Origin: Candidatus Limnocylindrus sp.
GTDB taxonomy: Bacteria > Chloroflexota > Limnocylindria > Limnocylindrales > Limnocylindraceae
DNA length: 24,844 nucleotides
Direction: 5' to 3'
Assembly: GCA_040397175.1 (NCBI GenBank)
Contig: JBBAWM010000008.1
Span: 1-24,844 of the forward strand
In this document: piece by piece, positions 1,558-24,652 of the stretch
Layout of the letters: each line of letters opens with the position of its first letter
Numbering within the stretch: the first letter of the stretch is position 1
The notes under the pieces: model-generated
Told to the model about the DNA's origin: nothing
The model's input: only the letters and a program-made list of their open reading frames with translations
The model's database searches: none
Made by a program: the position numbers and the translations under genes

Positions 1558-1612
1558 AATGACTCCTTTGCAAGCGGGCGAGCTAGCTGTGATGTCCGGT
1601 AGCGGACGAAAT

Positions 1613-2479
1613 CTACGGGTTCCGCCAATACTTCTCAACGAGTTCGACAGTGGATTCGATATTGGTGCGGCTTGAGGCGCCGAACACGATTGACTCGACG
1701 TTGGGCAGCGAAGTGACCCACGCAATCGCCTCGTCCGGATGGATTGCACCCGAAGCGAAAACCGACATCGCGACGGCGCGGAACTTCCGATTGTTCAGGG
1801 CGTCGATGTAGCTGTCTATGCCACCGGACATCCGAAATCCGATCTTGTTAATGTTGGAGCACACGATCGGATTGTCGATGCCGACTGAGTCCAAGGCATC
1901 GAGCAGGCGTGGCATGTTCATGGTGATGAAGGCCGGCTCGGCTCGGTAATGATGTGCCACGTGGTCGGCGAAGATTCGGAACGCTTCGGTGAACCCCATA
2001 CCGAGCAGGAAGTCGACGACGACGTTCTGCAGGAAAATCACCGGCGTCTTCAGCCCACTGAACATCTTCATTTCTGCATCGATCAAGAGTGTGATGACGC
2101 CTTCGATGTCCTTTCTGGCGAATGATTTGCCGCCGCGCATCGCTGCGTCGAGGAAACCACCATCGGGCAGGAACTGCTTGATCGCCCCGAACACGCCCGC
2201 CTCGCCCATCGCATTTGCGTACTTGTGCGCGTAGGGCATGCACGGGTAAAAGATCTGTCGTTCGTAGCGCTCAGCTTCGGAACGGACGCGGTCAGTGACC
2301 TCGGCGATGCGGTCGTGGGTCGTGCACATGAAGGTCGTAACACCCGTGTCGTAGGCCGCATCAAGCACCGACATGATCGCGTCTGTGGACTGGAAGCGCA
2401 TCGCTTGGGCGCGCGCCTTCTCCTCCGACATGTGGTTGACGCCGAAGAACTGGTTGTCACCGAACAGAAGTCGGTCCAT
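1613..2479 (-). CDS. Conserved hypothetical protein, possibly aldo/keto-reductase-like TIM barrel
   Basis: 288-aa ORF with strong GC3 bias, starting 3 nt after the stop of the upstream oxidoreductase. N-terminal RLLFGDNQFFG, the ..LDAAYDTGVTTF.. segment and C-terminal AMSVFASG..SIVFGASS resemble AKR-fold segments. Confidence 0.75.
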   Translation of the reverse strand: MDRLLFGDNQFFGVNHMSEEKARAQAMRFQSTDAIMSVLDAAYDTGVTTFMCTTHDRIAEVTDRVRSEAERYERQIFYPCMPYAHKYANAMGEAGVFGAIKQFLPDGGFLDAAMRGGKSFARKDIEGVITLLIDAEMKMFSGLKTPVIFLQNVVVDFLLGMGFTEAFRIFADHVAHHYRAEPAFITMNMPRLLDALDSVGIDNPIVCSNINKIGFRMSGGIDSYIDALNNRKFRAVAMSVFASGAIHPDEAIAWVTSLPNVESIVFGASSRTNIESTVELVEKYWRNP

Positions 2480-2482
2480 TCA

Positions 2483-3622
2483 TCAGCCCTTCGATCCGCT
2501 GTGGGTGCGGCGCGCCTGCCGTCGATTCCGGAGCCAGGCCCACACCCCGGTTGGCCTCTCCGGCTGTCTCTCGACAGACGCGGGGCTTGGGCTCACGGCT
2601 TGAACGCTGCCGTCTCCGCTGGTGAGTATGGCGTGAAGTACTTCGTCGGTGACACTGGCATCATCGAAGTCCGCCGGGCCAGAGGTGGCTCGGTCGGCGA
2701 TTCGCGTCAGCCAGGTATCGAGTTGTGACGAGTACTCCTCCCCGCGCACGTAGAAGTCGACCTCGCCGGTCAGTTCGGTGGTGTACCGGACTGTCCAGCC
2801 TTTGCCGTATCCCGCGAGGGCGGGTTCCGCTTCGCGCAGGTACACCTGAATTTCCTGGCGGTCTGCAACGATCTTGCCGTTGGTGCCCCAGATGGAGACA
2901 CGCGTGGTCATCTTGCGCAGTGACTCATCGGACCAACTGACGGAGAGTTGGCCGCTGACGCCGCTCGGCCACTTGAGTGTTGTGAACACCTCGTCCTCGG
3001 TTTCCGTGGAGAACACCTTGCTGAGCACCGTCCCGGAGACCGACTCGGGGCGGCCGAAGTACCAGGTAAGTAGGTCCACCGGGTGCGCGGCATAGTCGTA
3101 AAGCGCCCCGCCGCCCTCGTCCTTTTTGCTACGCCAGGTGCTGCCCTGGGGCTTGAGGACGACTGGACCGTAGGCCTCGGCGAGAACGTGGGTGACCCGG
3201 CCCAGTGCGCCACGGTCAAGGATCCGCTTGACTTCGCCGAACGTCGCTACGTGCCGGTTGTGATAGCCCACCTGGGTGACCAAGCCCTTTTCGCGAGCGA
3301 GTGCGGCAAGCGCCACCGAGTCGGCTGGATCCAGGCAGAACGGCTTTTCGCAGAACACATGGATGCCGCGCTGCAGGCAGTCGCGCACCATGGGCGCGTG
3401 GAAGCGGGACGGCGTTGAGATTACGGCGGCCTCGACATCGGCCGAGTCAATCATCTTCTTCATGTCGGCGTAGGTGGCGACGCCGGTGTACTTGCCCAAG
3501 ATGTCCAGAATGTAACTGCTGGAGTCGCACACCCCGACGACCTTGACGTCGGGGTGCGCATTGATGATCGAGAAGTGCGACAGCCCCATCTTCCCGAGGC
3601 CGATGATTCCGACATTGACCAC
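2483..3622 (-). CDS. Gfo/Idh/MocA family NAD(P)-dependent oxidoreductase
   Basis: VGIIGLGKMG Rossmann motif, HVFCEKP, QVGYHNR and GGGALYDYAAH. Likely GTG start at 3622 after GAGGGA; the ORF-track start at 3886 overlaps the upstream GT. Confidence 0.9.
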   Translation of the reverse strand: MVNVGIIGLGKMGLSHFSIINAHPDVKVVGVCDSSSYILDILGKYTGVATYADMKKMIDSADVEAAVISTPSRFHAPMVRDCLQRGIHVFCEKPFCLDPADSVALAALAREKGLVTQVGYHNRHVATFGEVKRILDRGALGRVTHVLAEAYGPVVLKPQGSTWRSKKDEGGGALYDYAAHPVDLLTWYFGRPESVSGTVLSKVFSTETEDEVFTTLKWPSGVSGQLSVSWSDESLRKMTTRVSIWGTNGKIVADRQEIQVYLREAEPALAGYGKGWTVRYTTELTGEVDFYVRGEEYSSQLDTWLTRIADRATSGPADFDDASVTDEVLHAILTSGDGSVQAVSPSPASVERQPERPTGVWAWLRNRRQARRTHSGSKG

Positions 3623-3632
3623 TATGAGTCCC

Positions 3633-6962: not shown

Positions 6963-7871
6963 CTAATGGCGCTCGGAGTCGACCACGTCTCGAACAGTCT
7001 GCAACAGGTCGATGGAGGGTTGCCATCCCAGCGCCTCGCGGATCGCCGTGTTGTTGCCGCGAACCTCATCAGGGTCGCCGGGGCGGAGTTTCGCTTGGTC
7101 GACTTCGATTTCCGGACGGCGACCATCAGTCAAATTGTCAGCGACAATATCAAGCAACTCTTGACCTGAAACCGACTTACCGGAGGAAACGTTGAGCACG
7201 GGGGCCGTCACTTGCGGCACTTCCAACGCCAGTCTGTAGGCGCGGACAACATCCCTGACGTCCGTGTAGTCGCGGCGAGTAGCTAGATTCCCCACACGCA
7301 CTGCCTCTCCGGTCTGCATCCAGTGGGTAACCCCGCGCACCAAGTCAGGGAGTAGGAAGCCCGGACCCTGGCCCGGTCCAATGTGGTTGAAGGGCCGCAT
7401 GACAAGGATATCTAGGCCGCGCTGTCGGTAATATGCGCTCTGCGCTTCCGTGAGGATTTTGCTGACGATATAGGGCGACGAGGGGTTTATCGGAGAGCTT
7501 TCGTCGAGCGACTGGTTGCCCGATGTGTGGTAGACCCCGCCCGTGCTCACCACTATGACGCGCACCTTTTCGTTCATCGAAAGAAGCGCCTCCCCTAGGC
7601 GGGTCATTGGTGCGCTGTTTGACTCGATATATCGTTGCGGCTCGTTGAATGACGGCCCTACCGCTGACAAAGCAGCTAAATGCACGACTGCGTCACAATC
7701 GACCGAAGGCCAATGGTCCCGTAGATCCACGGCCACATAGTCACTCAGCAGGCCGACGTCTTCTCCGACGGGACCTAAGCCCATTCCGATCACACAGTGG
7801 CCGTGGCCCGTAAGTTCCCTCACCAGGTGCGGGCCTACGAAACCGGCGACGCCTGTGACCGCTACTTTCAT
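6963..7871 (-). CDS. rmd: Extended SDR, Rmd-like GDP-4-keto-6-deoxy-D-mannose reductase
   Basis: TGVAGFVG, HLAALSAVGPSF, YxxxK (YIVSK), RPFNHIGPGQ and GNLATRRDYTDVRDVVRAY; directly downstream of gmd. Product stereochemistry is inferred. Confidence 0.7.
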   Translation of the reverse strand: MKVAVTGVAGFVGPHLVRELTGHGHCVIGMGLGPVGEDVGLLSDYVAVDLRDHWPSVDCDAVVHLAALSAVGPSFNEPQRYIESNSAPMTRLGEALLSMNEKVRVIVVSTGGVYHTSGNQSLDESSPINPSSPYIVSKILTEAQSAYYRQRGLDILVMRPFNHIGPGQGPGFLLPDLVRGVTHWMQTGEAVRVGNLATRRDYTDVRDVVRAYRLALEVPQVTAPVLNVSSGKSVSGQELLDIVADNLTDGRRPEIEVDQAKLRPGDPDEVRGNNTAIREALGWQPSIDLLQTVRDVVDSERH

Positions 7872-7920
7872 GCGGTTAGGAGGCTAGTCTTAGGCGACAC
7901 ACAGGCGCGAGTGAGCATTT

Positions 7921-8913
7921 TCACGCTTGTCGTACCAACTCCAGATCGTGCTGAACCATGCGGTGAACCAAGCCGCGAAAATCGACCTCTCGCGTCCAAC
8001 CAAGAACCCTCTCCGCTTTGGATGGATCACCCAAGAGAATATCTACCTCCGCAGGTCGCAGGTACCGGGGATCCTGCCGAACATAAGGGCGCCAGTCGGC
8101 TATGCCGACCTCTGCGAAGGCAAGTTCGAGGAATTCTTCAATGGAGTGTGTTTCGCCCGTTGCCAGCACGAAATCGTCTGGCTCATGATGCTGGAGCATC
8201 TGCCACATCCCTCGCACATAGTCGCCGGCGTAACCCCAGTCGCGCTTTGGCCAAAGATCGCCCAGGCTCACGTAATCCTGTTGGCCTGAGTGAATCTTAG
8301 CCACTGCATTCGTGATCTTCCGGGTCACAAATTCCAAGCCGCGGCGCTCACCTTCGTGGTTGAAGAGAATCCCGGTAGAGATGAACATTCCGTAGCTCTC
8401 ACGGTAGTTTCGCGCAATCCAATGCGCATAGAGTTTTGCCACACCGTAGGGGCTGCGCGGATGGAAAAGTGACTCCTCGTTGTATCCGGTCCCCGGGCGG
8501 TTGTAATCAAGTCCACCGAACATTTCTGAGGTCGAGGCCTGATAGAACCGGGTCTTTTTATCGAAACCGGTGATCCTCATTGCCTCCAAGAGGTTGAGTA
8601 CGCCCTTGGCCGTGATATCGGTCGTCAATTGAGGGTTGCGAAAGGAGTAACCCACATGGCTGATCGCCCCGAGGTTGTAGATTTCCGTGGGTTCGGAAGT
8701 TCCCACGGCCTGGATCAACGATGTCTGATCAGTCAGGTCAGCCTCAATGAGGTTGATGAAGGGAAACTCGGCCTCTAGTGCTTCACGCCGGGCGTTGCTT
8801 TGCCCGCGAAGCAGGCCAAAGACTTCGTATCCCTTCTGGTGCAGCAACTCTGTCAGGTGGCCCCCGTCTTGCCCCGTAATGCCGGTGATGAGAGCGCGAT
8901 TGTCGTTAGCCAC
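7921..8913 (-). CDS. gmd: GDP-mannose 4,6-dehydratase
   Basis: ALITGITGQDG, FYQASTSEMFG, PRSPYGVAKLY, GILFNHE, FVTRKIT and RDWG motifs. Likely GTG start at 8913 after AGGAG. Confidence 0.95.
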   Translation of the reverse strand: MANDNRALITGITGQDGGHLTELLHQKGYEVFGLLRGQSNARREALEAEFPFINLIEADLTDQTSLIQAVGTSEPTEIYNLGAISHVGYSFRNPQLTTDITAKGVLNLLEAMRITGFDKKTRFYQASTSEMFGGLDYNRPGTGYNEESLFHPRSPYGVAKLYAHWIARNYRESYGMFISTGILFNHEGERRGLEFVTRKITNAVAKIHSGQQDYVSLGDLWPKRDWGYAGDYVRGMWQMLQHHEPDDFVLATGETHSIEEFLELAFAEVGIADWRPYVRQDPRYLRPAEVDILLGDPSKAERVLGWTREVDFRGLVHRMVQHDLELVRQA

Positions 8914-9059
8914 TCGGTGCCTGCTCCTGTTTCGACGCGTACCTGTCTGGCACCGCAGAGTTCGTCGGATGGGAGGCCGTGAGTGTGGCACGGAAGTCGG
9001 ACGGTCCGCAATCACCGGTCAAAGGTTCATCCGCATTTCCGACTGGCCCCGCAACGCCC

Positions 9060-10972: not shown

Positions 10973-13195
10973 TCACCATGTCGTTAGCGCTGTCCGCATC
11001 CAGGTGTCCGCGGCCACGCAGATGTAGACGTGGCTGGTGTCCGCCGCCCAGTTTCCGACCAGGCCCGGGGCGTCGGCCTTAGCGGGTACAGCGACTTTAA
11101 CGCCTACTGGTTCGCTCGAAGTTCCGGTGGTGACGATCCCAAACCACACAGTTCCCGTGCTGATGAGCGACAACTGGCCATTGGCACGTCCAAGGCTGGC
11201 GCTGCCCACGATAGCGTCGGAGTCGGAGGGCGTGGCGGTAATCGTGTTTGCGGTCGACACCCTGCCGGACCCATCGATTAGGCAGTACTCCCTACCGACT
11301 GGCACGGCCGAAATCGCTGGTAGGGCAACGGTGCGCGGTGCGCTGATGCTTGTCCATATCAAGACCGAATCCTGAACCGAAGCAGTGACATTGGAATCGG
11401 CCACAGATCGGACGTATTTTGGCAAGGGGCGGTTGGTCCCTCGGCCAGCCGCTTCTGCAACGATTGGAAGATTCTCGACTGCCCAACTATCCCTGTAGGC
11501 GAAAGCTGGTTGGTTTGAGTTGTTCGGTAAGTGGACGGTGAGCCCCTCCCATGTCACCGTGGGAGCCTGACCGGTATTCAGCGACAGAATGGCCGCACCG
11601 AGGTCACGGCCATACGAGTTAGGCGGGTCATAAGACTTAACTCCGCTGGAAGCAGTCCCCCAGTGGACCAGGCCACGAATATTCACAGACGAAGTTGGAA
11701 GGTTGTCCAACACAAGGGCATTGGCGCCCTGGGGAACATCAGTCGGTCTTAAAGCTGTCTCTGGACCGTTATAGCCGTTCCAGTAGACGTTTTCGCCATA
11801 CTCATTTTTCAGATTGGTAATGACAATGCCGGCCCCTAGGGGCGACGCCCCAGGGCCCACCAGGCGCAGGAGACCGCCACTGTTCTGGTCCCCCGAAAGA
11901 GAGTCGAAGTAAACGGTTTCGCCGCTAGCCACCTTGTAGCTGATACCCGGACTACCTGCCCGCTGGACCAAAACGCCTTCGGCGGTCGCGGTCGCAGCCT
12001 GGTTGGTCGTGATCGTCCCCGCTTCAGCATCGACAGTGATAATCACTGAGTCCACTGGAACGCCGGGACCGCACAGGATGTCACCAACTTCCAGCCCAGC
12101 AAAGCTTGAGACATTGGTGATGGCGGCGCTTCCACTCATGGTGTCAGCCGAAAAGACATTTCGGTTCACGTAACCATTGCAGAATGCATAAAGGTCTCGG
12201 AATGTGGCAGTGATGGCTCCGCCCGCGAATTCGAAACCAGCATTCGCGCAACCCATAGCCGCAACTCGTTCGATTGTACCGCCATCAATGATCTTGACTG
12301 CATCACCGGCAGCGTTGCGGAAACTCAGACCGTTACCAGCAGAATTCTCCCAGTCCTGCACGATAGCGAAACCAGAAAGAAATCCATTCCAGTCGTGCTT
12401 ACCACGGACGCGGGCGCAGTCCACGTTTTGATCCCACATCTGATAAAACGCTGTACCACCCGTGTTTTCCGCGCCCCCGAACCTGGCGTAAAGGATGTCG
12501 TAGGAGACCCAATTCTCCGCAGCACCCTTGACCGTTCCTAACCCGGGGAAGATCAACGTCCCCGAGTACATGGCGACACCGTGAGGGAACACTGCGATAC
12601 GGGCCAATCTCCGGTCCCGCCCGGTATACGACAGATCATCGAACAGATAGTTCAACGCGGTCGCGTTGTCGGTTCCAAACATGCAGAAAGTACCCGTCAC
12701 CGTACTCAGGCAGGGTGCTTCAAGAATGGCATAGCCGGCGCCCCACCCGATAATCGTGGTCTTCAGATTTGTTCCAGCCGACCCAGCCCCAACAACCTTG
12801 ATGACCTTCCCAATGTCGGCTTTGCTGAACGTGTAGCCCGAAACAGTCAAATGGGTTGGTTTGAATTTGGAAGACATAGATGCCGATGTGGTCGTATAGC
12901 GATCCATCTTGACGTTGTAGGGAGCTTGGGTGGGGTCGATGTGCAACGGATTTCGGGCAACAAGGTTCCCGCCACTGATCGATGTCTCCTGACCATCAGC
13001 GCCAGAGTTAAGTCTGCCGATCGGCGCTGGCGGCGATGCCCTGTACGGGTCGCTGCAAGCGCCGATGGAGGCTGCAGCGGTACTTGCACCCAAACCTAAG
13101 AGTGGAAGTCTGCGCAATGCCTCACGGCGTGACGGGAGTTTGTCGGAATTGTCGGTCGCGGTCTCGTCGGCTCCGTAGCGATGAAGAAATCCCAC
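10973..13195 (-). CDS. Putative Tat-exported lipoprotein with a pectate-lyase-3-like beta-helix and phage tail-fibre-like C-terminal modules (possible polysaccharide depolymerase or binding protein)
   Basis: SRREAL twin-arginine motif, hydrophobic stretch and IGAC lipobox (Cys47). IDPTQAPYNVKMD...GTDNATALN...VFPHG...TVKG resembles a beta-helix cap. The C-terminus reads VPAKADAPGLVGNWAADTSHVYICVAADTWMRTALTTW. Confidence 0.7.
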   Translation of the reverse strand: MGFLHRYGADETATDNSDKLPSRREALRRLPLLGLGASTAAASIGACSDPYRASPPAPIGRLNSGADGQETSISGGNLVARNPLHIDPTQAPYNVKMDRYTTTSASMSSKFKPTHLTVSGYTFSKADIGKVIKVVGAGSAGTNLKTTIIGWGAGYAILEAPCLSTVTGTFCMFGTDNATALNYLFDDLSYTGRDRRLARIAVFPHGVAMYSGTLIFPGLGTVKGAAENWVSYDILYARFGGAENTGGTAFYQMWDQNVDCARVRGKHDWNGFLSGFAIVQDWENSAGNGLSFRNAAGDAVKIIDGGTIERVAAMGCANAGFEFAGGAITATFRDLYAFCNGYVNRNVFSADTMSGSAAITNVSSFAGLEVGDILCGPGVPVDSVIITVDAEAGTITTNQAATATAEGVLVQRAGSPGISYKVASGETVYFDSLSGDQNSGGLLRLVGPGASPLGAGIVITNLKNEYGENVYWNGYNGPETALRPTDVPQGANALVLDNLPTSSVNIRGLVHWGTASSGVKSYDPPNSYGRDLGAAILSLNTGQAPTVTWEGLTVHLPNNSNQPAFAYRDSWAVENLPIVAEAAGRGTNRPLPKYVRSVADSNVTASVQDSVLIWTSISAPRTVALPAISAVPVGREYCLIDGSGRVSTANTITATPSDSDAIVGSASLGRANGQLSLISTGTVWFGIVTTGTSSEPVGVKVAVPAKADAPGLVGNWAADTSHVYICVAADTWMRTALTTW

Positions 13196-15146: not shown

Positions 15147-16058
15147 ATGCTGAGGCTCCGAGCGGGCGAAGGTCACACCGGAATGGATAGCGAAATGCGT
15201 AATGCTGAACCCATAACGGGATCGATTACCTACCACGGTGAGGGACCTTTCTGGGACTCAAGATCTGGGCGACTCTTGTGTGTGGATATGCTGTCAGCGG
15301 AAATCCTCGCGATTGATTCAACGGGCAATTTTTCTCGGCACAAGGTGCCGAGCCGCGCGGCGACCGTCATTCGCCGTCGAGCATCTGGTGGTTTTGTTAT
15401 CGCCACAGAACGTGACCTAATCGGGTCTGATGAGGACTTCTCGGTCTTCGACTTGATCGCGGACATTAGACCCGCAAATGGCTGTCGGACTAATGATGGA
15501 GCATGCGACCCATTTGGGGGCTTCGTAATCGGCACCATGGCTTACGACGAGCGAGCCGGTGGGGGTGCTGTATATCGTATTGCTCCCGACCACCAGGTCC
15601 GTGAGATTCTTGCCCCAGTGTCGATTTCGAACGGATTGCAATGGTCCGCAGACGGCGCGCGTGCGTACCATGTCGATACACCTACCCGGTGCGTTGACGT
15701 ATTCCGAATCGATCCAGAGAGCGGTTCGTGGTTTGACAGGCGTACCCACATCCGGATTGAAGGCTCCTCAGGATACCCAGACGGTATGGCGATCGATGAA
15801 GAGGATGGGCTCTGGATAGCGCTGTGGGCTGGCGGCGTCATTCAACACTATGACGCGGCCGGCAGACTGGTCGAAGAAATTGCAGTGCCAACTGTGACCC
15901 AGCCTAGTTCGTGCGCGTTTGGCGGCGACGATGGCAACATTCTTTATATAACCACGTCACGTCAGGGATTGGCGGATCGCGATCAACCCCTTGCTGGGTC
16001 CCTATTTGCTTTCTGCACTCAATCACGGGGCGCGGAAGTTTGGCAGTTTGGCGGCTGA
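15147..16058 (+). CDS. SMP-30/gluconolactonase/LRE family protein
   Basis: HGEGPFWD, RTNDG.CD, SNGLQWS.DG, PDGMAID, SCAFGG and LYITT motifs. The true start may be ATG 15183 or 15195. Confidence 0.9.
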   Translation: MLRLRAGEGHTGMDSEMRNAEPITGSITYHGEGPFWDSRSGRLLCVDMLSAEILAIDSTGNFSRHKVPSRAATVIRRRASGGFVIATERDLIGSDEDFSVFDLIADIRPANGCRTNDGACDPFGGFVIGTMAYDERAGGGAVYRIAPDHQVREILAPVSISNGLQWSADGARAYHVDTPTRCVDVFRIDPESGSWFDRRTHIRIEGSSGYPDGMAIDEEDGLWIALWAGGVIQHYDAAGRLVEEIAVPTVTQPSSCAFGGDDGNILYITTSRQGLADRDQPLAGSLFAFCTQSRGAEVWQFGG

Positions 16059-16059
16059 T

Positions 16060-16097
16060 GGAAAATTTTCCTTGAGGGTTTTAACCCGTGCTACAAT
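16060..16097 (+). promoter_or_regulatory. Putative promoter: palindrome GGAAAATTTTCC, inverted repeat GGGTT-TT-AACCC and extended -10 TGcTACAAT
   Basis: Palindrome at 16060-16071, inverted repeat at 16076-16087, and TACAAT at 16092-16097 preceded by TG. Confidence 0.45.
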
Positions 16098-16223
16098 CGC
16101 CGACCGAATCTAAAAAATGCTTGTGTAGTTGACGCCATTAAGAACAATACATCCAGAAAATTACGCGAATTCAGTCTCGCGTCCCGAAGGGAATGGGTCG
16201 GAAGTGTTGAAACTGCTCCTGCC

Positions 16224-17522
16224 TTGGCGCCAACCGATTACAGCTCAGATTGTTTGGATTTGGTCGTTAAGCGCGACCGCGCGCAGGTCGGGATTCGGGA
16301 AGCGCGCCTCCCCAGCCAGTGTGGTGCGGTGAGACGCTATTCGTATCCGCTCCATCGTCGGGCGGTCCGCGGCGCGCGCCGCTGGTTTAACTTGACGACA
16401 GAAGCTTTTCGACGACCAATTCGTCGACACGAAATCCTCCTTGTCACTGGGGGTGCGTCACGGGCCAAGATTCAAATGGTCGAACTCCGCCTTAAATTCA
16501 TCCTAGAACATATAGAGCAGAAGTTCGATGTTAAGTACGCCAAGATCGCCCCACTGCGGGCATACTTGCGATTCGCAGCGCTCGTCGCGGCTGACTCTAC
16601 GGCCGTCCCAGACTTTGTTCTCAAACATCTCTCATGGGCCTACGACTTGGACTTTGAGACTAACAAAACCGACGGCTGGACGGCTATGGAATTGGGAACC
16701 TTGCTGAATCAACAGTCCGGAATTAAGCCGGCCGAGGCCGCGGCTCGCCGTAGGTTAGATGAGCGCGTTCGTCAGCTAAAGGCCTGTGGAATGCGGCCTG
16801 CATACATTTTCGGAACTGGGCCATCCCTACAACTAGCAGCTGAGCGCTCGTTCGCTGATGGGATTACGATTGTCTGTAATACAATCGTCCGAGATGCTGA
16901 ATTATGGCACCATCTCTCGCCCGCATTCCTTACAGCTGGCGATGCGATTTATCATTTCGGTGGTAATGCGCATGCGAGGGCTTTTCGCGCCGATGCGTTA
17001 TTACGACTCGTGGAGTCAAATGGCAGTACATTGTTTGTGTACCCGTCTATGTTTGACGTAATCGTTCGCCCCGAATTCCGCGATGTGGAGGCACTTCTGA
17101 TACCGATTCCGTGGGGAGAACATACGGATGTGACTGTAGATCTGACTGACCGCTTCAGCCTTCCATGCGCCGAGAATGTTCTCAACGCATTGCTCCTTCC
17201 GTTAGCGTGCACGGTCAGTAGCGATATCCGTCTATGGGGATTCGATGGCCGCGGACCCACCGATACCGGATTTTGGGCAAATTCTCATAAACATGCTTAT
17301 CCCGAATTGATGCAGTCTCTCCGTGACGACCACCCGGCCTTTTTTGCGGAGTCGATACCTAGAGGTAGGGAAATAGAATATGCCCAACGCGTGCACGGCG
17401 ATCTACTGGAAGAACGGCTAACCGACGCGGAGAACCGCGGCATTCGCTTCCGGATGCTGCATCAGTCCTGGACGCCGACCTTAGCAAAACGGTATCGGGC
17501 AACCGAGCCAGAATCGCGATAA
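16224..17522 (+). CDS. DUF115/Maf-like protein with GT42-like motifs; putative CMP-sugar-acid transferase
   Basis: AYIFGTGPSL (GxGPSL), TIVCN and IRLWGFDG motifs of DUF115/MAF_flag10 and CstII-like folds. The start is uncertain (TTG 16224, TTG 16392 or ATG 16477). Confidence 0.65.
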   Translation: MAPTDYSSDCLDLVVKRDRAQVGIREARLPSQCGAVRRYSYPLHRRAVRGARRWFNLTTEAFRRPIRRHEILLVTGGASRAKIQMVELRLKFILEHIEQKFDVKYAKIAPLRAYLRFAALVAADSTAVPDFVLKHLSWAYDLDFETNKTDGWTAMELGTLLNQQSGIKPAEAAARRRLDERVRQLKACGMRPAYIFGTGPSLQLAAERSFADGITIVCNTIVRDAELWHHLSPAFLTAGDAIYHFGGNAHARAFRADALLRLVESNGSTLFVYPSMFDVIVRPEFRDVEALLIPIPWGEHTDVTVDLTDRFSLPCAENVLNALLLPLACTVSSDIRLWGFDGRGPTDTGFWANSHKHAYPELMQSLRDDHPAFFAESIPRGREIEYAQRVHGDLLEERLTDAENRGIRFRMLHQSWTPTLAKRYRATEPESR

Positions 17523-17657
17523 CAGGCTTTACGTGAGGAGTGCGAACCAACTACCTGTGCAAATCTGGCAATCTGCGCGATGCTAATTGCGACCGCCGAA
17601 AATTTTGCGCAACTTACCCGTGCCCGCGTAGGATGATGATCTGAAACTCTAGGAGAC

Positions 17658-18416
17658 GTGATGAAGCCGTTGCGCCAAGTTATAGCAGGTGTCCGGCGGC
17701 GCTTGGACGAACGTCGTTTCCCATTCGTTGTAACACTCCGTGACTTCGATTCTGCTGGCGTGCGCTTCGAGGTTAGCAATCTGGTTGAACGCCTCAGGAT
17801 TATCGACCACGGCAGCGAAACAGACTATACAGCAGCCATGATTGCGGATCTGCGTAAAGACGACGTATTGTTCGATGTCGGCGCTAACGTCGGCATGGTC
17901 GCACTCCACGCCGCCAAAATCTGCCAAGTTGTCGCGTTCGAACCCGATCCGTATTACGGGGGCCGGCTGAAAAATAATATGGCATTGAATCCAAATCGGC
18001 CGTTTACTATTGAGTCGGTTGCTGTAAGCGATAAGGATGGCAGCTTAACGCTTCACACCGAAGGCGGTGCCGGTACCAGTCCGAGTCTGGTGCGCCAGCG
18101 CGGCGAGACCGCCAGTGTTGTAGTTAGCGGGCGCTCACTTGATTCGCTCATAGCCGAAGGTCGTTTGCCACGGCCCACTGTTATCAAGCTCGATATCGAA
18201 GGTGCGGAGATCCTGGCTTTGCGCGGCGGTCTTGGGCTACTGTCGGGACCGAACCGGCCGAGAGCTCTCTACGTCGAGCTACATGACACATTTCTTGGCG
18301 GTTTTGAATCATCCGCAGATGAAGTCTATGAGTTACTGCGCGAGTTCGGATACACCAAGAAAATCTACTCATCCAAACGTGACGATCAAACGCATCTAAT
18401 CTTGTACAGAGATTGA
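17658..18416 (+). CDS. FkbM family methyltransferase
   Basis: LFDVGANVG, VAFEP, IKLDIEGAE and YVELH motifs; AGGAG RBS before GTG/ATG (17658/17661). Confidence 0.9.
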   Translation: MMKPLRQVIAGVRRRLDERRFPFVVTLRDFDSAGVRFEVSNLVERLRIIDHGSETDYTAAMIADLRKDDVLFDVGANVGMVALHAAKICQVVAFEPDPYYGGRLKNNMALNPNRPFTIESVAVSDKDGSLTLHTEGGAGTSPSLVRQRGETASVVVSGRSLDSLIAEGRLPRPTVIKLDIEGAEILALRGGLGLLSGPNRPRALYVELHDTFLGGFESSADEVYELLREFGYTKKIYSSKRDDQTHLILYRD

Positions 18417-19802
18417 TGAAATTCGTTTGGTATTGATCCATTCCGGGTTTTGGGCACCTAGTCGAGATTGTCGCTCCGACGTCGAAGAGCCCTGAGATTG
18501 ACACGCGACTCCGACCAGTATTACCAGGATCCAAAATGTTTGTTGTCCGGCGCCCGGTGCGATAGATACCTGAGTCATGCCGTTTAGGAGCAGGGCAATT
18601 AGAGCCAAAAGAGCTACAATGCCGTTTCGAGCCCAATCGTCCGCGTGTGCCGAGAGTCGCGAAGCCGCCCAATAGATCGCAAGCGTCAGAAGTAAAACAC
18701 CTATAAGTCCACCGTCGAACAGTTGCTGAAGGAATGAGTTATGAAGGGACGCATATTCTGGGTTTCGCACTATGTTCGCGAGCTCACTCGCGTAAGTTTG
18801 AGAAACGCCAGATAAATATTGACTACCTTGGCCAAACCCGATCAAACTTTCAGACGAGCCGTATACCCATGCTTGCCAATAGTCAATAGATCTTTCCCAG
18901 ATGGTCGACCGAAAATTCAACGAAGAGATTTGTTGTGCGGTGATCGTGCGTCCGGGGGCAATGAAATTGAAAATAGCAGTAATAACACTTTCAAGCCGGG
19001 TTACGACGGGAGGCAGAATGATGGCGGAGATAGACGCGCAGATTGTAGTTAACTGCGCTAGACGACCACTAAGTCCTGGAAAGGCGAATACGATCCCTAC
19101 GAGAATTACCGGCGCTATTCCAGTGCGGGCACCGGATTTGTAAAGAATATACAATGCTGCACACAAAAGTAGGGAGCGAAACAATCGACGAGGCCAATCG
19201 CGTTCGACAATCAAGTACAGGCCAGCAGCAATGTATATCGATGCTAACGCGGCTACCTCATCAAGTGAGGATCCGAGTGGCCAAATGATCCTCACCATAC
19301 CAGTTGTTTCGATGTACCCGGCGATCCGACTGTCAGCGTTAGGCGAGCGTAGTCCGACGGAGTAACTAAGGACATTCAACAACAGGCAGATACCGATCCC
19401 ATCTATCAAGGAACCAATCACGATCCTTGCGTCGACCGTCCGGACTAAAACCACCGTGAGTGCGGACACGAGAACGAGAATTATTAAATTCGACCTAGGT
19501 TCAGATCTTACTAATGCAATTCCCGCTGCAATCCAGAGGGCCAATAATGGGCCCATTCTCAATGATCGGCGGAAGGGGCAGCGCCTAACAGCCGCCGCGG
19601 CGATGAGAATTGCTAGTAGTGCCAATGAAGCTTTTGGGCTAAAGGGCCGAATTGCGAGAACAACCGGAACAGCAATTACTATCCAGTCCAGAGGCACCTT
19701 GTCCGTGTTGTTCACGCCAGTGGATTTGGAAAGAGCCCTCGTTGAGTCAAATATCTGCGGCGGCACCGCCATACGACCCTTTCGATAAAGCAACCCTCCC
19801 AT
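18396..19802 (-). CDS. wzy: O-antigen ligase/Wzy polymerase family membrane protein
   Basis: About 10 or more hydrophobic segments, SGARTG, a large loop with R..IW, and HNSFLQQLFDGGLIG; directly downstream of the flippase. Confidence 0.8.
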   Translation of the reverse strand: MGGLLYRKGRMAVPPQIFDSTRALSKSTGVNNTDKVPLDWIVIAVPVVLAIRPFSPKASLALLAILIAAAAVRRCPFRRSLRMGPLLALWIAAGIALVRSEPRSNLIILVLVSALTVVLVRTVDARIVIGSLIDGIGICLLLNVLSYSVGLRSPNADSRIAGYIETTGMVRIIWPLGSSLDEVAALASIYIAAGLYLIVERDWPRRLFRSLLLCAALYILYKSGARTGIAPVILVGIVFAFPGLSGRLAQLTTICASISAIILPPVVTRLESVITAIFNFIAPGRTITAQQISSLNFRSTIWERSIDYWQAWVYGSSESLIGFGQGSQYLSGVSQTYASELANIVRNPEYASLHNSFLQQLFDGGLIGVLLLTLAIYWAASRLSAHADDWARNGIVALLALIALLLNGMTQVSIAPGAGQQTFWILVILVGVACQSQGSSTSERQSRLGAQNPEWINTKRISSISVQD

Positions 19803-19909
19803 TATTGGCGAAGTATATGTGAACAGTAGCAGGATGGAAACTGGGCGAGTAGGTTGCTGAGGGGTAAATTTGCCAGAGGTTAATGCAGGTTAACCGGGCT
19901 TTCGGCGAA

Positions 19910-21334
19910 CTAGCCCGACGTTGGTGCTGTGACGCCGCGTCTCCGCGCTATCAACATTGCCGCAACAAGCAGAAGTCCGATGCTCCCCCCGGCTAGTATT
20001 CGGCTTGGGGTTGACCCGACGGGAAGAGTTAACGCCACGGTGCTTAACACCATCGCGGCCGCCCCACCGGTTACTTCGGGCCAACACGCGGCCCACGCTC
20101 GCCATGCAATCTCAAGCTTCGCCACCCGGATCATGCCAAATGCGACCGCCGTCATCACGAAGTAGCCGGCACTCGTAGCGTAGGCGACGCCTATTGCCCC
20201 GTACTCGCGTCCGAAGACGAGAATAGGTCCGAGTATGACCACAGCGCCCGCACCGGATGCGAAAGCGCTGTACTTGGGTACACCGGCAGTTAGCACCAGA
20301 TAGTTGATGGCGATGGGATAGACGCCGAACGCGACTTGGCCTAAGAGTAAGACTCCTGCCACGGCAAATGAAGGCCAATACGGCGACGGGAAAATCCACT
20401 GCCCGACAAGAGCCAGCGCTGCACCGATAGCTGCGGGGACCGCTACCGCCAAAACCAGTTGCCACCGGACAGGGGCATACGTGCTTTGGCTCGGGGCTGG
20501 GAATGTCTCCCGAGAAAATCGGGGTTGAACGGCGCGGTTGAACTCCGAAATGACGAGCGACGCGACAGCCGCGACATTCAACCCGACTGCGAGAAAGCCA
20601 ACCTGTGCCAGTGTCGACACGGTTGCCAATGCCGGCCGACTTAGGGATGTAATTGCCCAGTAGGCGGATTTGTGTGGAACAAGAGGTAGGGCGAAACGAA
20701 GCAAATCGTTCAGGTGTCTTCGAGACACTTGTGCCCGCGGCACGCGAACAAGCGTCCATGCCAGAACCGCAGAGACCGCCGCGCTGACGAGATCGGACAC
20801 GACCCAGCCGAGAACTCCCATCTTCAGCACCACAACCAACGTTAATTTTGATAGCGCGTAGACCACTGTCGAGATGCTGGCAAGCCAAACAAAACGTGGA
20901 AGATCCTGGACGGACTGCACCATTGGCAGAGCGAATACGGTCATCGATACCTGGAGCGCTAGGGCGAGGATCTCGATCGCCCAAATTCTACCGGAGATAC
21001 CGAGAAAAGTTGGAACTGATAAGGCGAACACCGTTGCAACGATTGCGCCGAATAGAGGCAGCAGGACGTAGCTATAGAGGCCTGCTAGCCGCAGAATTCC
21101 ACGGGACTCATCATCGTCTTGCGGCACCATGCGTAACACGACCGTGTCAATCGGGCCAGCGAGGAGCGCAAGGAGCAGCATGGCAGCAGCCGTAAGCATT
21201 GATGCGGCGCCATACTCCGCCGGCGGCATCACCCGAGCGATGAATGGCAGAATCAGCAGGGAAATGCCGCGCTGGAACCCGGCGAGTACCAAATAGGTGG
21301 TTGCCGCGCGTCCGGTTATTCCAAGTCGAGCCAC
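19910..21334 (-). CDS. wzx: Oligosaccharide repeat-unit flippase (Wzx, MOP superfamily)
   Basis: Highly hydrophobic 474-aa protein with LILPFIARVMPPAEYG, LLRFALPL and YGAIGVAYAT patterns. Confidence 0.9.
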   Translation of the reverse strand: MARLGITGRAATTYLVLAGFQRGISLLILPFIARVMPPAEYGAASMLTAAAMLLLALLAGPIDTVVLRMVPQDDDESRGILRLAGLYSYVLLPLFGAIVATVFALSVPTFLGISGRIWAIEILALALQVSMTVFALPMVQSVQDLPRFVWLASISTVVYALSKLTLVVVLKMGVLGWVVSDLVSAAVSAVLAWTLVRVPRAQVSRRHLNDLLRFALPLVPHKSAYWAITSLSRPALATVSTLAQVGFLAVGLNVAAVASLVISEFNRAVQPRFSRETFPAPSQSTYAPVRWQLVLAVAVPAAIGAALALVGQWIFPSPYWPSFAVAGVLLLGQVAFGVYPIAINYLVLTAGVPKYSAFASGAGAVVILGPILVFGREYGAIGVAYATSAGYFVMTAVAFGMIRVAKLEIAWRAWAACWPEVTGGAAAMVLSTVALTLPVGSTPSRILAGGSIGLLLVAAMLIARRRGVTAPTSG

Positions 21335-21369
21335 GGCTTAGAGTGCCTGCCCGTTGATTGGGTCGGTCA

Positions 21370-22092
21370 TCACTCCGAACCCAGACGCGCAGTCGCTCCG
21401 CCATCAACGATAAGAACGGCTCCCGTGATGAATCGGGCGTCATCGCCGATAAGAAAAGACGCCGCCGCTGCAACGTCGGTGGGTTCACCGATTCGGCGCA
21501 GTGCGGTGCGCTCGCGCAGTACAGCCTTGCGTTCTTCGGCTGATGCCTCCCAGCGGGCGAAACCTTCACGCAACTTCGCGGTGTCGATTGCCCCCGGTGC
21601 GACGGCGTTGACCCGGATCTCGGGCCCCAGGTCCAGTGCGGCGGACCGCACCCAGCCTTCCAGCGCGGCCTTGCTTGTGGCATAGGCAGTAAGGCCACCG
21701 GTTGTCGCGCGGGCGTGAACGCTACTGACGACCACGACTGAACCCTCGTTGGTCGCCAGGCTCTCGCGAGTGCCTGACACCAACGCATCGACAGCGATGA
21801 CGTTCACGCGCATCGCATCCGTCCACTCACTGAGGGATGTCTGACCAGCTCCTGCCAGGGGCTGCACCGCGGCATTGTGAATCACAGCCTTCAATTGGTA
21901 GTCCCTGGCAAGCTCTCGGCCGAGGTCGATCAGCCGTTCGGACTCTCGCAGGTCGATCCGCACGTCAACGTCGGCATCGATTGCGACATCTCTATCGAGG
22001 CCGATCGCGATGTACCCGTCACTGCGCACGCGTTGACAGATCGCCGTGCCGATCCCGCCGGCGGCCCCGGTGATGATGATGGCGCCGGTCAT
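21370..22092 (-). CDS. Classical SDR family NAD(P)-dependent oxidoreductase
   Basis: ITGAAGGIG, HNAA, YATSK, IRVNAVAPG and FITG..L.VDGG motifs; ATGA overlap with the upstream gene. Confidence 0.92.
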   Translation of the reverse strand: MTGAIIITGAAGGIGTAICQRVRSDGYIAIGLDRDVAIDADVDVRIDLRESERLIDLGRELARDYQLKAVIHNAAVQPLAGAGQTSLSEWTDAMRVNVIAVDALVSGTRESLATNEGSVVVVSSVHARATTGGLTAYATSKAALEGWVRSAALDLGPEIRVNAVAPGAIDTAKLREGFARWEASAEERKAVLRERTALRRIGEPTDVAAAASFLIGDDARFITGAVLIVDGGATARLGSE

Positions 22093-23021
22093 CTCGAAAG
22101 CTCCTCAAGGAGGAAGTCGACGGCCGTCGTGCTGGCACGCTCAACGCCCTCCCGTGTGTTCGAGCCGTTATGGGCGCCCAAGATGACGTTCGGGAGCGTC
22201 CTGAGTTCGCTATCGAGGGGGAGGGGTTCGACCTCGAAGACGTCGAGCGCCGCACCGGCAACTCGACCGGCCTTAAGTGCGTCAATCAGATCGGCTTCGA
22301 GGACGACGGGCCCCCGAGCGACGTTGATCAAGCAGGCGTCGGGGAGCATGAGGGCAAGTCGCTCGGCGTTGATCAAATGGAACGTTTCCGGCGTGAGGGG
22401 ACAGGCGAGCACGATAAACCTGCTGCTGGCGATGAGTTCCTCGAGACTGACCATCGTGACGTCTGCCGGAGTGTCGTCGGCGTAAGGATCGAATGCGACA
22501 ACATTCATACCGAAACCCGAACCGCGCCTGGCGATCTCGCGGCCGATCGCACCGAAGCCCACGATTCCGAGCCGAGTGCCGGCAAGGGTCATTCCCTCAT
22601 GCTTTGGCCACTCGCCTCGCCGAACGGCGGCATCCACGGTGATAAAGCCGCGGGCAAGGTTCAGGATGTAGCCGAATGCGGCATCGGCTACTTCCTGCCC
22701 GAAGACACCTGGCGTGTTGCGGACGGTCACTGCGTGGCGGCGGGCCGCGTCATGGTCGACAGAGTCCATACCGATGCCCCAGCGGATCACAGTCCTGAGT
22801 TCGGGGGCACCGTCGAAAAATTCACGGCTGAGTTCGTCGTCGCCGGCGATGATCCCTACCAGATGGGGGCCGTACTCCAGTAACTCCGCCGCGGTGAACT
22901 GTTGACGGCCGCCCAGGTCGGGCGCCAGCACTTCGTATCCGAGTTTCTCGATGCGTTCGCGGTGCAGGGGGAGTTCGACCTGCATCTGGCGGCAGGTGAC
23001 CAGGACCAGGGGCGTACTCAC
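22089..23021 (-). CDS. D-isomer-specific 2-hydroxyacid dehydrogenase (phosphoglycerate dehydrogenase-like)
   Basis: RWGIGMDSVD, NTPG, GIVGFGAIG, INVARG, LDVFEVEPL and AHNGS motifs; GTGA overlap with the upstream gene. Confidence 0.92.
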   Translation of the reverse strand: MSTPLVLVTCRQMQVELPLHRERIEKLGYEVLAPDLGGRQQFTAAELLEYGPHLVGIIAGDDELSREFFDGAPELRTVIRWGIGMDSVDHDAARRHAVTVRNTPGVFGQEVADAAFGYILNLARGFITVDAAVRRGEWPKHEGMTLAGTRLGIVGFGAIGREIARRGSGFGMNVVAFDPYADDTPADVTMVSLEELIASSRFIVLACPLTPETFHLINAERLALMLPDACLINVARGPVVLEADLIDALKAGRVAGAALDVFEVEPLPLDSELRTLPNVILGAHNGSNTREGVERASTTAVDFLLEELSR

Positions 23022-23692
23022 GGGTTAATTCCACCACTCTCGGCGATGGCGACGGCGAGTGCGAAGTCTTCTTCGATATCGATATCCACCGCTTCTAACG
23101 CTGCCATTTCGAACATCAGAGGCGTTGCGCCGATGCGGTTTCCCCTCTCCCGCAACAACCGTGGGGTGAAGATGAAGAAGCACGAATTCTCGATGAACAG
23201 CGGTGCCAGATCCTGAGTGCGAAGCAACACTGACGGATCGTGGTTCACCGGTCGGGTGTCGGCGTCCCAAAGTCGGGCTTGCAGGCGGGTGACGCTGAAA
23301 ACCGAGTCGAATTCGCTCTCGGGCTCGTTGAACAGTTTCAACGCGGCAGACACCGTGCTGGCCTTCAGGAACGGATTCGTGGAGTGTGTCTGCAGAACGA
23401 CCTCGGCATCGACCTGATCAAGGGTGTTGAGCAGGACATCGTTCATGGCGACACTGCCATCGCGTAGGCCCTCCGGCCGCAGAAGCACCCGCACGTGCGG
23501 GAAGTGGGTTTCACAGTCATCGATGATGAAGTCGCTGTCGGTGTCGATCACGATGGAGTCGATCTCCGGCACCGCACTGAGCGTACGAATGACATGGTGA
23601 TATAGCGGAATTCCAGCCAACGGACGGTAATTCTTTCCGGGCACGCGCTCACTGTTGTGGCGCATCGGGACGATGGCGAGCGTGGGCATCAT
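23018..23692 (-). CDS. Acylneuraminate cytidylyltransferase family (NeuA/KdsB-like CMP-sugar-acid synthetase)
   Basis: AIVPMRHNSERVPGKNYRPLAGIPL, QTHSTNPF, RTQDL...ENS and AVDIDIEEDF motifs. Confidence 0.9.
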   Translation of the reverse strand: MMPTLAIVPMRHNSERVPGKNYRPLAGIPLYHHVIRTLSAVPEIDSIVIDTDSDFIIDDCETHFPHVRVLLRPEGLRDGSVAMNDVLLNTLDQVDAEVVLQTHSTNPFLKASTVSAALKLFNEPESEFDSVFSVTRLQARLWDADTRPVNHDPSVLLRTQDLAPLFIENSCFFIFTPRLLRERGNRIGATPLMFEMAALEAVDIDIEEDFALAVAIAESGGINP

Positions 23693-24652
23693 CTAGGAAT
23701 CTCCCGAATATTCGATCTTGCGGCCAGGTTCGGGCGGCGCGACATGGCTACCGGGATCTGGCGGATAGTAGAAGTGTTCGCGCAACTGCGCCGAGATGTG
23801 ATCGGGTTCCCGAAATCCCTGCCATGCGCCAATGAATTGCGCGAATCGGAACATGGGAATACCCAGCATGTTCTCGCTGAGGCGGTGTGCCTTGACTGCG
23901 TGTGCGTAGTCACTCGCGATGTTCGACAGCGAGAGACCGATAGCCCCGGCTAGCGACATCGTCGAACCCTCGACGATGCGGGCGTAGGCCATGGCTTCGC
24001 GCCTGTACCTGTTGCGGATGACGCTCCACGTCTCTTCATGGACATGAACTATCGGCGCGTCAGCGACATAGGCGATCTTGTATCCCCTGGCGAGTGCCCT
24101 CTTGGCGAAGTCAAGGTCCTCGAGGCCGGTCAGGGACTCGTCATACTGCAACTCCTGCCACGTCGATGTCAGCACCGCGGCGTTGGCGTTGTTACTGAAC
24201 GGGTGGCCCTGGTCCCAGATGTTTCGATTCGGGAACCACTTCAGCATCACCCGCGCCTCGGAGAACTTCGTCCGCTCATCACCGACTTGGCGGCCGTAGG
24301 CAATCCCCACGCCATCGCGGTCGAACGCACTGATGAGGTGCTCGACGTGGGTGTTGTAGAGCGGGTACACGTGGGCCGACGCGAAGAGCAGGACGTCGCC
24401 TGTCGCCGCCGCGCAGCCTCGGTTCAAAGCACGTCCGAATGAGAACTCGCTCTTGTCGATATTGACGATCTGGCAACCGGCCGCTTTGGCGATCGCGACG
24501 GTGTCATCCGTGGAGCCTGAATCGACAAGGATCATCTCATCGGGTTTGACGGTCTGCTGCTCGAAACCCTCCAGCAACCGGCCGATGTGCCTTGCCTCGT
24601 TGTAGGCGCGGATTACCGCTGACACCCGACGAGGCGGACTTGTCGTGTTCAC
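23693..24652 (-). CDS. GT2 family glycosyltransferase
   Basis: SAVIRAYNE, ILVDSGSTDDT, FSFGRALNRG and GLEDLDF motifs; abuts the cytidylyltransferase start. Confidence 0.9.
   Translation of the reverse strand: MNTTSPPRRVSAVIRAYNEARHIGRLLEGFEQQTVKPDEMILVDSGSTDDTVAIAKAAGCQIVNIDKSEFSFGRALNRGCAAATGDVLLFASAHVYPLYNTHVEHLISAFDRDGVGIAYGRQVGDERTKFSEARVMLKWFPNRNIWDQGHPFSNNANAAVLTSTWQELQYDESLTGLEDLDFAKRALARGYKIAYVADAPIVHVHEETWSVIRNRYRREAMAYARIVEGSTMSLAGAIGLSLSNIASDYAHAVKAHRLSENMLGIPMFRFAQFIGAWQGFREPDHISAQLREHFYYPPDPGSHVAPPEPGRKIEYSGDS

Follow-up and report, generated by a model that had tools for sequence, protein, structure and literature searches.

A cytidylyltransferase-dehydrogenase cassette of mycobacteria, Chloroflexota, proteobacteria and giant viruses as a candidate oxidative route to CMP-activated 2-keto-aldonates

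Nonulosonates and Kdo are described as products of phosphoenolpyruvate (PEP) or pyruvate condensation (PMC8157484), and the locus analyzed here raises the question of how a cytidylyltransferase that stands among oxidizing enzymes could be supplied with its sugar acid. The locus lies in a stretch of 24,844 nucleotides (the window) of contig JBBAWM010000008.1 (assembly GCA_040397175.1, filed as Candidatus Limnocylindrus sp.), which encodes a NeuA-fold cytidylyltransferase (CT), a D-2-hydroxyacid dehydrogenase, a short-chain dehydrogenase/reductase (SDR), an SMP-30 lactonase and a Maf-like protein. The original prediction, made from the letters of the window, proposed that these five proteins make a cytidine monophosphate (CMP)-activated 2-keto sugar acid by oxidation rather than condensation and transfer it onto a glycan. 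Comparison supports this pathway through gene fusions, co-occurrence across phyla and giant viruses, replacement of individual slots, and NeuB-free genomes. Oxidative synthesis of a CMP-2-keto-aldonate, followed by glycan transfer, is the best explanation of the cassette and probably the correct one; the cassette itself is real, widespread and apparently undescribed.

In the proposed pathway, the SDR would oxidize a free aldose to its lactone, the lactonase would open the lactone to the aldonate, the D-2-hydroxyacid dehydrogenase would oxidize the aldonate to a 2-keto-aldonate, and the CT would activate the latter to a CMP-sugar, which the Maf/GT42-fold protein would transfer onto a surface glycan, in this window likely the repeat unit of a Wzx/Wzy polysaccharide. 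Ring closure and the CTP-consuming step would pull the unfavorable oxidation at C2, and the product would be a five- or six-carbon ulosonate that keeps its 3-hydroxyl group, formed without condensation of PEP or pyruvate. The observations are gene content, linkage, fusions, folds and residues; from these, each activity, the sequence and direction of the reactions and the nature of the sugar are inferred. D-2-hydroxyacid stereochemistry points to a (2R)-aldonate, as derived from D-galactose, D-glucose, D-xylose, L-arabinose or L-rhamnose but not from L-fucose or D-mannose; D-galactose is weakly favored as a first guess. The adjacency of gmd/fcl genes was considered as a clue to the substrate and rejected on stereochemical grounds.

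All five genes are real open reading frames (ORFs), and Pfam agrees with the assignment of four (Table 1). The 4-nt overlaps are present as described, GTGA between the CT and 2-hydroxyacid dehydrogenase genes and ATGA between the latter and the SDR gene. In addition, a GT2 gene that the original prediction had not listed abuts the CT gene (TAG followed directly by ATG) and is counted as part of the core. The lactonase and Maf-like genes are nearby, as claimed, but lie on the opposite strand, 3.8-6 kb from the core and past wzx, wzy and the FkbM methyltransferase gene. The window is indeed free of a synthase or aldolase, with none of its 22 scanned proteins matching NeuB, KdsA or an aldolase in Pfam, and no synthase lies just outside, where 5.2 kb of contig encode a chain-length regulator, a DUF4012 protein, a hydrolase and a kinase-like ORF. 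The cassette belongs to a Wzx/Wzy polysaccharide cluster that has the chain-length regulator and DUF4012 upstream.

Table 1. Features of the cassette and its surroundings in the window, and aldolase-paired CTs of other loci (L numbers)
Feature	Coordinates	Strand	Basis or remark
GT2-family protein (PF00535), first gene of the core cassette	23693..24652	-	DXD replaced by S-[AG]-H
NeuA-fold cytidylyltransferase (CT), distinct clade (H103, R140, T159)	23018..23692	-	Pfam PF02348 CTP_transf_3, E 1e-32
D-2-hydroxyacid dehydrogenase, cassette-specific subfamily (GDD, WG.G.D), predicted aldonate 2-dehydrogenase	22089..23021	-	PF02826 2-Hacid_dh_C, E 6e-59; PF00389
SDR, predicted aldose 1-dehydrogenase	21370..22092	-	Pfam adh_short_C2, E 3e-40
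Wzx flippase	19910..21334	-	PF01943
Wzy-like polymerase/ligase	18396..19802	-	PF04932
FkbM-family methyltransferase (accessory)	17658..18416	+	PF05050, TIGR01444
Maf/GT42/GT29-fold protein, predicted CMP-sugar transferase	16224..17522	+	Start likely near 16329; model and fold search
SMP-30/gluconolactonase, predicted aldonolactonase	15147..16058	+	Pfam PF08450 SGL, E 2e-68, 231 bits
Aldolase-paired or aldolase-fused CTs	L156:10266-11906, L157:8022-9635, L159:8959-10302, L029:10635-11435, L032:7210-8001		

Among 22 mycobacterial-type loci, the order GT2-CT-dehydrogenase is kept in all 22, the SDR is present in 21 (the one miss falls at a contig end), and SMP-30 is present in 14 (in one of them in pieces). 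Within about 300 genomes of the mycobacterial genus, 15 carry a CT orthologue (at least 56% identity) and five more carry distant CTs (31-33%). Their cassettes occur in two settings, Wzx/Wzy loci and a neighborhood of EryCIII-like GT1 genes, gmd/fcl and ABC-2 transporters; loci of the EryCIII-like type are presumably glycopeptidolipid clusters, as judged from gtfA-type genes. In slow-growing mycobacteria (L007, L011, L018, L022 and L027), the cassette stands in such glycopeptidolipid-type clusters, where a keto-acid-capped glycolipid would be predicted. The original prediction had framed the pathway as mycobacterial, but the system is not specific to this group: the same gene set occurs on Rhodobacterales and rhizobial plasmids, in gammaproteobacterial-class genomes, in Chloroflexota metagenome loci, and in 10 giant-virus contigs, in which CT-SDR fusion is frequent and the gene order shuffled. 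The set also recurs in 20/20 genomes of one Chloroflexota family, and a phage collection searched with the CT gave no match.

Linkage was counted in loci with at least 6 kb on both flanks (78 short inner and 3 short outer loci were dropped), with the inner clade set operationally as CTs that score at least 150 bits against that of the window. In 47 of 55 inner-clade loci, the two dehydrogenase genes are found no further than 10 kb from the CT (mycobacterial 20/20, giant virus 7/7, Chloroflexota-type 16/20, proteobacterial 4/8). Beside outer-clade CTs the pair is found in 0/16 loci, and NeuB in 10/16. Enrichment of galE near the cassette was not seen (4/55 inner vs 2/16 outer loci). Of the five families expected to co-occur, the CT and both dehydrogenases do so, whereas SMP-30 and this DUF115-like protein are exchangeable. 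Among the 41 longest of the 150 best CT representatives, 22 are fused to a dehydrogenase (12 to the 2-hydroxyacid dehydrogenase and 10 to the SDR), four to GT29 sialyltransferase domains, three to a cassette-type GT2, and one each to HpcH, HMGL-like, HAD and sulfotransferase domains; eight have no second family, and none of the 41 is a NeuB-CT fusion.

The search for an unlinked synthase depends on which organism the window comes from. The window belongs to contig C8 of a 1.38-Mb assembly, and the tetranucleotide profile of C8 correlates with the five core contigs at r 0.89, against at least 0.99 among the core contigs. C8 encodes LpqN. Named proteins of Mycobacterium, Mycolicibacterium and Dietzia share 80-84% identity with its CT, which a quick tree places in a mycobacterial group of 26 rows (support 96), and the CT was not found in two genomes of the assembly's own genus. 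By these compositional and sequence signals, C8 is most likely a misbinned mycobacterial contig. Whole-genome synthase tests were therefore moved to true mycobacterial genomes, and searches of the window's own assembly for NeuB, HpcH and DAHP/KdsA were set aside. Several of the other small contigs (C6, C7 and C9-C15) deviate in tetranucleotide profile like C8.

In the 15 cassette-bearing mycobacterial genomes, NeuB gave one weak match (33 bits), to an ORF that scores 247 bits as DAHP_synth_1. Seven of these genomes hold no PF00793 gene, and the other eight hold DAHP-synthase-sized ORFs, not all typed individually. KdsA stays below cut-off in all five cultured mycobacterial genomes tested, and a NeuB/KdsA-type synthase lies near 0/20 well-flanked mycobacterial loci; all such locus-level counts cover tblastn queries with NeuB, KdsA, HpcH and HMGL, a set that missed the DAHP-synthase-type fusion in the giant-virus record L048. 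The absence of a supplying enzyme noted in the window extends genome-wide to true NeuB (15 genomes) and KdsA (five), but not to HpcH, homologues of which occur in 5/5. Where synthases do occur, they have partners of their own. NeuB is near 10 inner loci, all of Chloroflexota type; in nine, a second, canonical NeuA adjoins NeuB, and in the tenth NeuB sits at the locus edge. The Thalassovita kdsA is accompanied by its own kdsB and kpsF, and synthases in viral records are likewise paired with their own CT. A giant-virus bin that is complete by estimate lacks both NeuB and PF00793. Some related CTs have an HMGL-like, RraA-like or HpcH aldolase as partner or fusion domain (Table 1) and form sister synthase-free systems. 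The giant-virus record L048 encodes a fusion of a KdsC-type phosphatase and an aroFGH-type DAHP synthase (1347-3624) next to a KdsB-like CT of its own, which could be a route to a CMP-heptulosonate.

The oxidizing enzymes carry features that fit the predicted steps. The top PDB sequence matches of the SDR are Thermoplasma glucose-1-dehydrogenase-type SDRs (E 6e-28 and 2e-26), and glucose 1-dehydrogenase and aldose dehydrogenase come first in NCBIfam, both below cut-off (PRK06398, 125 bits vs 341); the catalytic residues S124 and Y137 are invariant and K141 nearly so. In two Rhodobacterales plasmid loci, another SDR, with D-xylose 1-dehydrogenase XylB as its best match (280 bits, cut-off 400), occurs with SMP-30. 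The SMP-30 protein aligns with regucalcin (E 1e-37), including the GEGP, ND, SNG and PDG motifs; we take Glu, Asn and Asp to be its metal ligands. In mycobacteria, 16 of 20 well-flanked loci have its gene within 10 kb. In 3/3 inner-clade loci fetched from the gammaproteobacterial sample (L153, L154 and L155), SMP-30 is absent and a metallo-beta-lactamase-fold hydrolase, which weakly matches L-ascorbate-6-phosphate lactonase, stands before the GT2 or forms a fusion with it, and in L137, which lacks SMP-30, a cyclase-family hydrolase stands between GT2 and CT. Lactones also open spontaneously. In three slots (SDR, lactonase and transferase), a different family with suitable chemistry can stand in, which supports the pathway. 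In the 2-hydroxyacid dehydrogenase, the catalytic R236, E265 and H284 are invariant among 18 aligned sequences, and D178 follows the nucleotide-binding loop, an Asp that, as such loops are generally read, suggests NAD as the cofactor. The database label phosphoglycerate dehydrogenase was rejected for this protein (TIGR01327, 207 bits vs cut-off 454); acidic GDD stands where 1wwk has IVRSK, a basic loop that is presumably the phosphate-binding loop of phosphoglycerate dehydrogenase.

The CT has the CTP_transf_3 fold. Its model (predicted local distance difference test, pLDDT, 97) has the CMP-Kdn synthetase PpNeuA as its closest solved fold (template modeling score, TM, 0.88), CTP-binding R16 and K20 are present in 84/84 aligned homologues, and metal-site D203 and D205 in 81/84. 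The unusual motifs PMRHNS and THSTNPF, first noticed in the original prediction, are present, and H103 (83/84) and R140 (81/84) are features of the clade. Arg140 is shared by all inner-clade CTs that are linked to dehydrogenases and missing from all outer CTs linked to NeuB. The CT tree is a quick tree with an unresolved base, and neither monophyly nor a direction of transfer is claimed. On two enterobacterial plasmids (L034 and L035), intermediate CTs (H103 and T159, no R140) lie in capsule loci that also hold an inositol-monophosphatase-like gene and a long NeuB.

For the protein at 16224-17522, Pfam gives no match at E<=0.01 and the PDB no sequence match, and its Foldseek rows are weak only. 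However, a model of 16329-17522 (pLDDT 90) compared in VIA-align matches Maf with Z 11.8 (root-mean-square deviation, rmsd, 4.3; 200 aligned residues), MptE with Z 11.0, the GT42-type alpha-2,3-sialyltransferase of C. jejuni (2p56) with Z 10.3, and GT29 enzymes with Z 8.3-9.5, all above unrelated rows. The modified GT-A fold of Maf proteins is thus recognizable over about 200 residues at rmsd 4.1-4.3 to Maf and the GT42-type sialyltransferase. Maf proteins are described as transferring ulosonates from CMP donors and as resembling Cst-II (bioRxiv 10.1101/2020.06.03.131540), and by its modeled fold the window protein is predicted to be a CMP-sugar transferase. An extra N-terminal alpha/beta domain spans about residues 31-130, and PF01973 finds no match in the window protein and matches 12 of 60 homologues only at E >= 0.09. 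Among the 22 mycobacterial-type loci, the window's Maf-like gene is present in eight and a sequence-unrelated, PF01973-positive protein in seven others, never both. That the CT is closest to CMP-Kdn/Neu5Ac synthetases and the transferase closest to Maf and sialyltransferases supports the pathway.

The GT2 is a sixth cassette member, near-obligate but not universal. It is present in 22/22 mycobacterial-type loci, lacks the DXD motif, and has S92-x-H94 invariant in 15 aligned sequences. NeuC and PseG free a sugar from UDP. The GT2 likely acts on the donor side, where by analogy it may release the aldose from a nucleotide sugar; it may instead build the acceptor residue. In the seven well-flanked giant-virus loci, GT2 is absent from all and a DUF218 gene is present in all. 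DUF218 recurs in the giant-virus CT-SDR clusters L040, L042-L045 and L047-L049, and the nearest Atlas clusters of these genes are viral, Chloroflexota and chlorophyte. Replacement of GT2 by DUF218 in Chloroflexota is unsupported, as both GT2-less genomes gave no match to the viral type.

Compared with the CMP-Kdn and CMP-Neu5Ac pathways (PpNeuA 9t4z, murine CMAS 1qwj, N. meningitidis 1eyr), the cassette CT shares the NeuA fold (TM 0.83-0.88), the CTP-binding Arg/Lys, the DxD metal site and the pairing with sialyltransferase-fold proteins, but the cassette has no synthase, its CT carries Q104 to H and R165 to T changes and a new R140, and its partners are two dehydrogenases and a lactonase. The Kdo pathway (KdsD-KdsA-KdsC-KdsB) likewise activates a free ulosonate with CMP, whereas the cassette CT is NeuA-like rather than KdsB-like (TM about 0.7, 11-19% identity) and KdsA and KdsC are absent from the cassette. 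The closest described architecture is that of ElaABC (8-epi-legionaminic acid), which depends on the full legionaminic acid pathway (PMC13656337). ElaABC and EpaAB (8-epi-pseudaminic acid) of Acinetobacter also join a CT to NAD(P)-dependent oxidoreductases in a capsule context, but they modify a nonulosonate from a full Leg or Pse pathway, whereas the cassette has no such pathway and adds a 2-hydroxyacid dehydrogenase and a lactonase; the mycobacterial carriers have no NeuB-family synthase that would link them to legionaminic or pseudaminic acid. Non-phosphorylative aldose oxidation shares the first two steps (aldose dehydrogenase and SMP-30), but it is catabolic, continues with a dehydratase and is not known to feed a nucleotide-sugar donor. 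The 2-ketogluconate reductase GhrB provides aldonate/2-keto-aldonate chemistry within the enzyme family of the cassette dehydrogenase. The protein at 16224-17522 shares the fold of Maf, GT42 and GT29 CMP-sugar transferases but differs in its lack of a significant PF01973 match and in its N-terminal domain, and the GT2 differs from canonical members in lacking the metal-binding DXD. In the open-licence literature, with few subscription journals covered, no description of the cassette or of a CMP-2-keto-aldonate was found. A pentulosonic acid attributed to the Klebsiella K38 capsule was set aside, having no tie to genes; the main text of PMC4616057 carries no mention of it.

Several observations weigh against the oxidative pathway. 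The CT lacks the arginine with which NeuA binds its carboxylate, since Thr159 occupies the position of N. meningitidis Arg165 (murine Arg202), Leu156 that of murine Arg199, and His103 that of Gln104; residue 159 is Thr or Ser in 82/84 clade members. In NeuA, Arg165 is described as binding the C1 carboxylate and as essential (PMC2901514). Compensation by R140 or R186 is only inferred, although the coupled 140/159 swap in the alignment is as expected for compensation. Read from sequence, the H103/R140/T159 pattern would point to another sugar, and it gives the strongest grounds for doubting the predicted product of the CT. Every NCBIfam match of the SDR and of the 2-hydroxyacid dehydrogenase falls below cut-off and so assigns no substrate. 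SMP-30 lies near none of 20 Chloroflexota-type loci, most of which have no recognized lactonase, and four of five Chloroflexota genomes hold a full SMP-30 elsewhere, in unrelated surroundings. The Maf fold is also that of the MptE kinase and of thiamine pyrophosphokinases, two of 20 well-flanked mycobacterial loci have no Maf-type gene, and GT2 was not found in two of five Chloroflexota genomes tested and carries a stop codon in a third. Unlinked HpcH-family proteins (25-34% identity) occur in all five mycobacterial genomes tested, which makes supply in trans by HpcH conceivable. The inner-clade CTs of L029 and L032 are paired with an HpcH aldolase in what looks like a sister, aldolase-fed system. 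Finally, many loci are kin, and the linkage counts are hence not independent.

The missing carboxylate-binding arginine (PMC2901514), together with the new, near-invariant Arg140, would suit a CT that activates a keto sugar whose anomeric carbon is not beside a carboxylate, such as a 5-keto-aldonate or a neutral ketose, with the dehydrogenases working in another order or direction. This is unlikely, although it is the alternative we take most seriously: the 2-hydroxyacid dehydrogenase keeps its Arg/Glu/His triad, each of the two SDR families found in this slot is nearest to aldose 1-dehydrogenases, the scanned loci showed no decarboxylase, and the swap at 140 and 159 is coupled. Ranking behind it, and doubtful in our view, is a keto acid made by an unlinked aldolase or synthase and merely tailored by the dehydrogenases, as ElaABC epimerizes legionaminic acid. 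The 15 mycobacterial genomes without true NeuB and the complete-estimated giant-virus bin without NeuB and PF00793 argue against such a source, as do the CTs owned by nearby synthases and the HpcH-linked dehydrogenase of L032, which lacks the cassette motifs; the lactonase would, moreover, be left without a role. Its attractions are the precedent of ElaABC, in which one CT travels with two oxidoreductases (PMC13656337), NeuB within 10 kb in nine of 20 Chloroflexota-type loci, the two inner-clade CTs beside HpcH and the unlinked HpcH-family genes of mycobacteria.

It is improbable that the donor is made as proposed but transferred by the GT2 instead of the Maf-like protein, even though the GT2 gene adjoins that of the CT, shares its distribution precisely (the same 15 of about 300 genomes), is fused to the CT in three homologues and has no DXD. 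Its conservation is that of a donor enzyme: mean identity to the window protein is 77%, within the 75-80% of the GT2, CT, dehydrogenase and SDR, whereas SMP-30 (59%), the Maf-like protein (59%), Wzx (55%) and Wzy (40%) vary more. The GT2 is also unchanged across Wzy, ABC-type and glycopeptidolipid-type loci, and five of the seven giant-virus loci without it have an MptE-like gene. To our knowledge, no GT2 uses a CMP donor. Least probable of all, and very much so, is that the oxidizing genes are a sugar-catabolic remnant that travels with the polysaccharide locus without feeding the CT. Aldose dehydrogenase and SMP-30 do form the entry of non-phosphorylative sugar catabolism, but CT-dehydrogenase fusions make up 22 of 41 long homologues, the set is kept in giant-virus glycosylation clusters despite shuffled order, and no dehydratase, kinase or transporter accompanies it in the scanned loci.

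Other parts of the window add to the picture of the glycan. Genes for Gmd and an Rmd-like reductase (6963-9015, minus strand) suggest a GDP-6-deoxyhexose in the same glycan, and several methyltransferase-like genes (Pfam) lie within the polysaccharide locus. A 740-residue protein with a twin-arginine-like N-terminus (10973-13195, minus strand), without a Pfam or NCBIfam match, is a possible secreted glycan-acting enzyme. A 288-residue protein without a family match (1613-2479, minus strand) neighbors a Gfo/Idh/MocA oxidoreductase (2483-3619, minus strand), and this pair is also found close to the cassette in L013 and L028 with 82-87% identity.

Collectively, an oxidative origin, if true, would give a new nucleotide-sugar donor missed by screens based on synthase genes, the usual means of surveys, or on the 380-520 Da window of labeled products that one study also used (PMC8157484). 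A wider scenario, which we put forward tentatively and hold to be more doubtful than the core pathway, is a third, purely oxidative route from an aldose to ulosonate donors. In it, a synthetase with a re-wired active site would give an undescribed, CMP-activated mimic of sialic acid (C5-C6), the GT2 without DXD (in giant viruses, DUF218) would act first and release the sugar from its NDP form, and the residue may cap polysaccharides, mycobacterial glycopeptidolipids and giant-virus glycans. The core claim of an oxidative route is directly testable, as it rests on four small soluble enzymes. If true, the oxidative pathway would explain thousands of orphan annotations of the type acylneuraminate cytidylyltransferase plus phosphoglycerate dehydrogenase and give testable functions to orphan MptE-like, GT2 and DUF218 proteins. 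The predicted carriers of an acidic keto-sugar are about 5% of the sampled mycobacterial species (15/300), one whole Chloroflexota family (20/20 genomes) and giant viruses.

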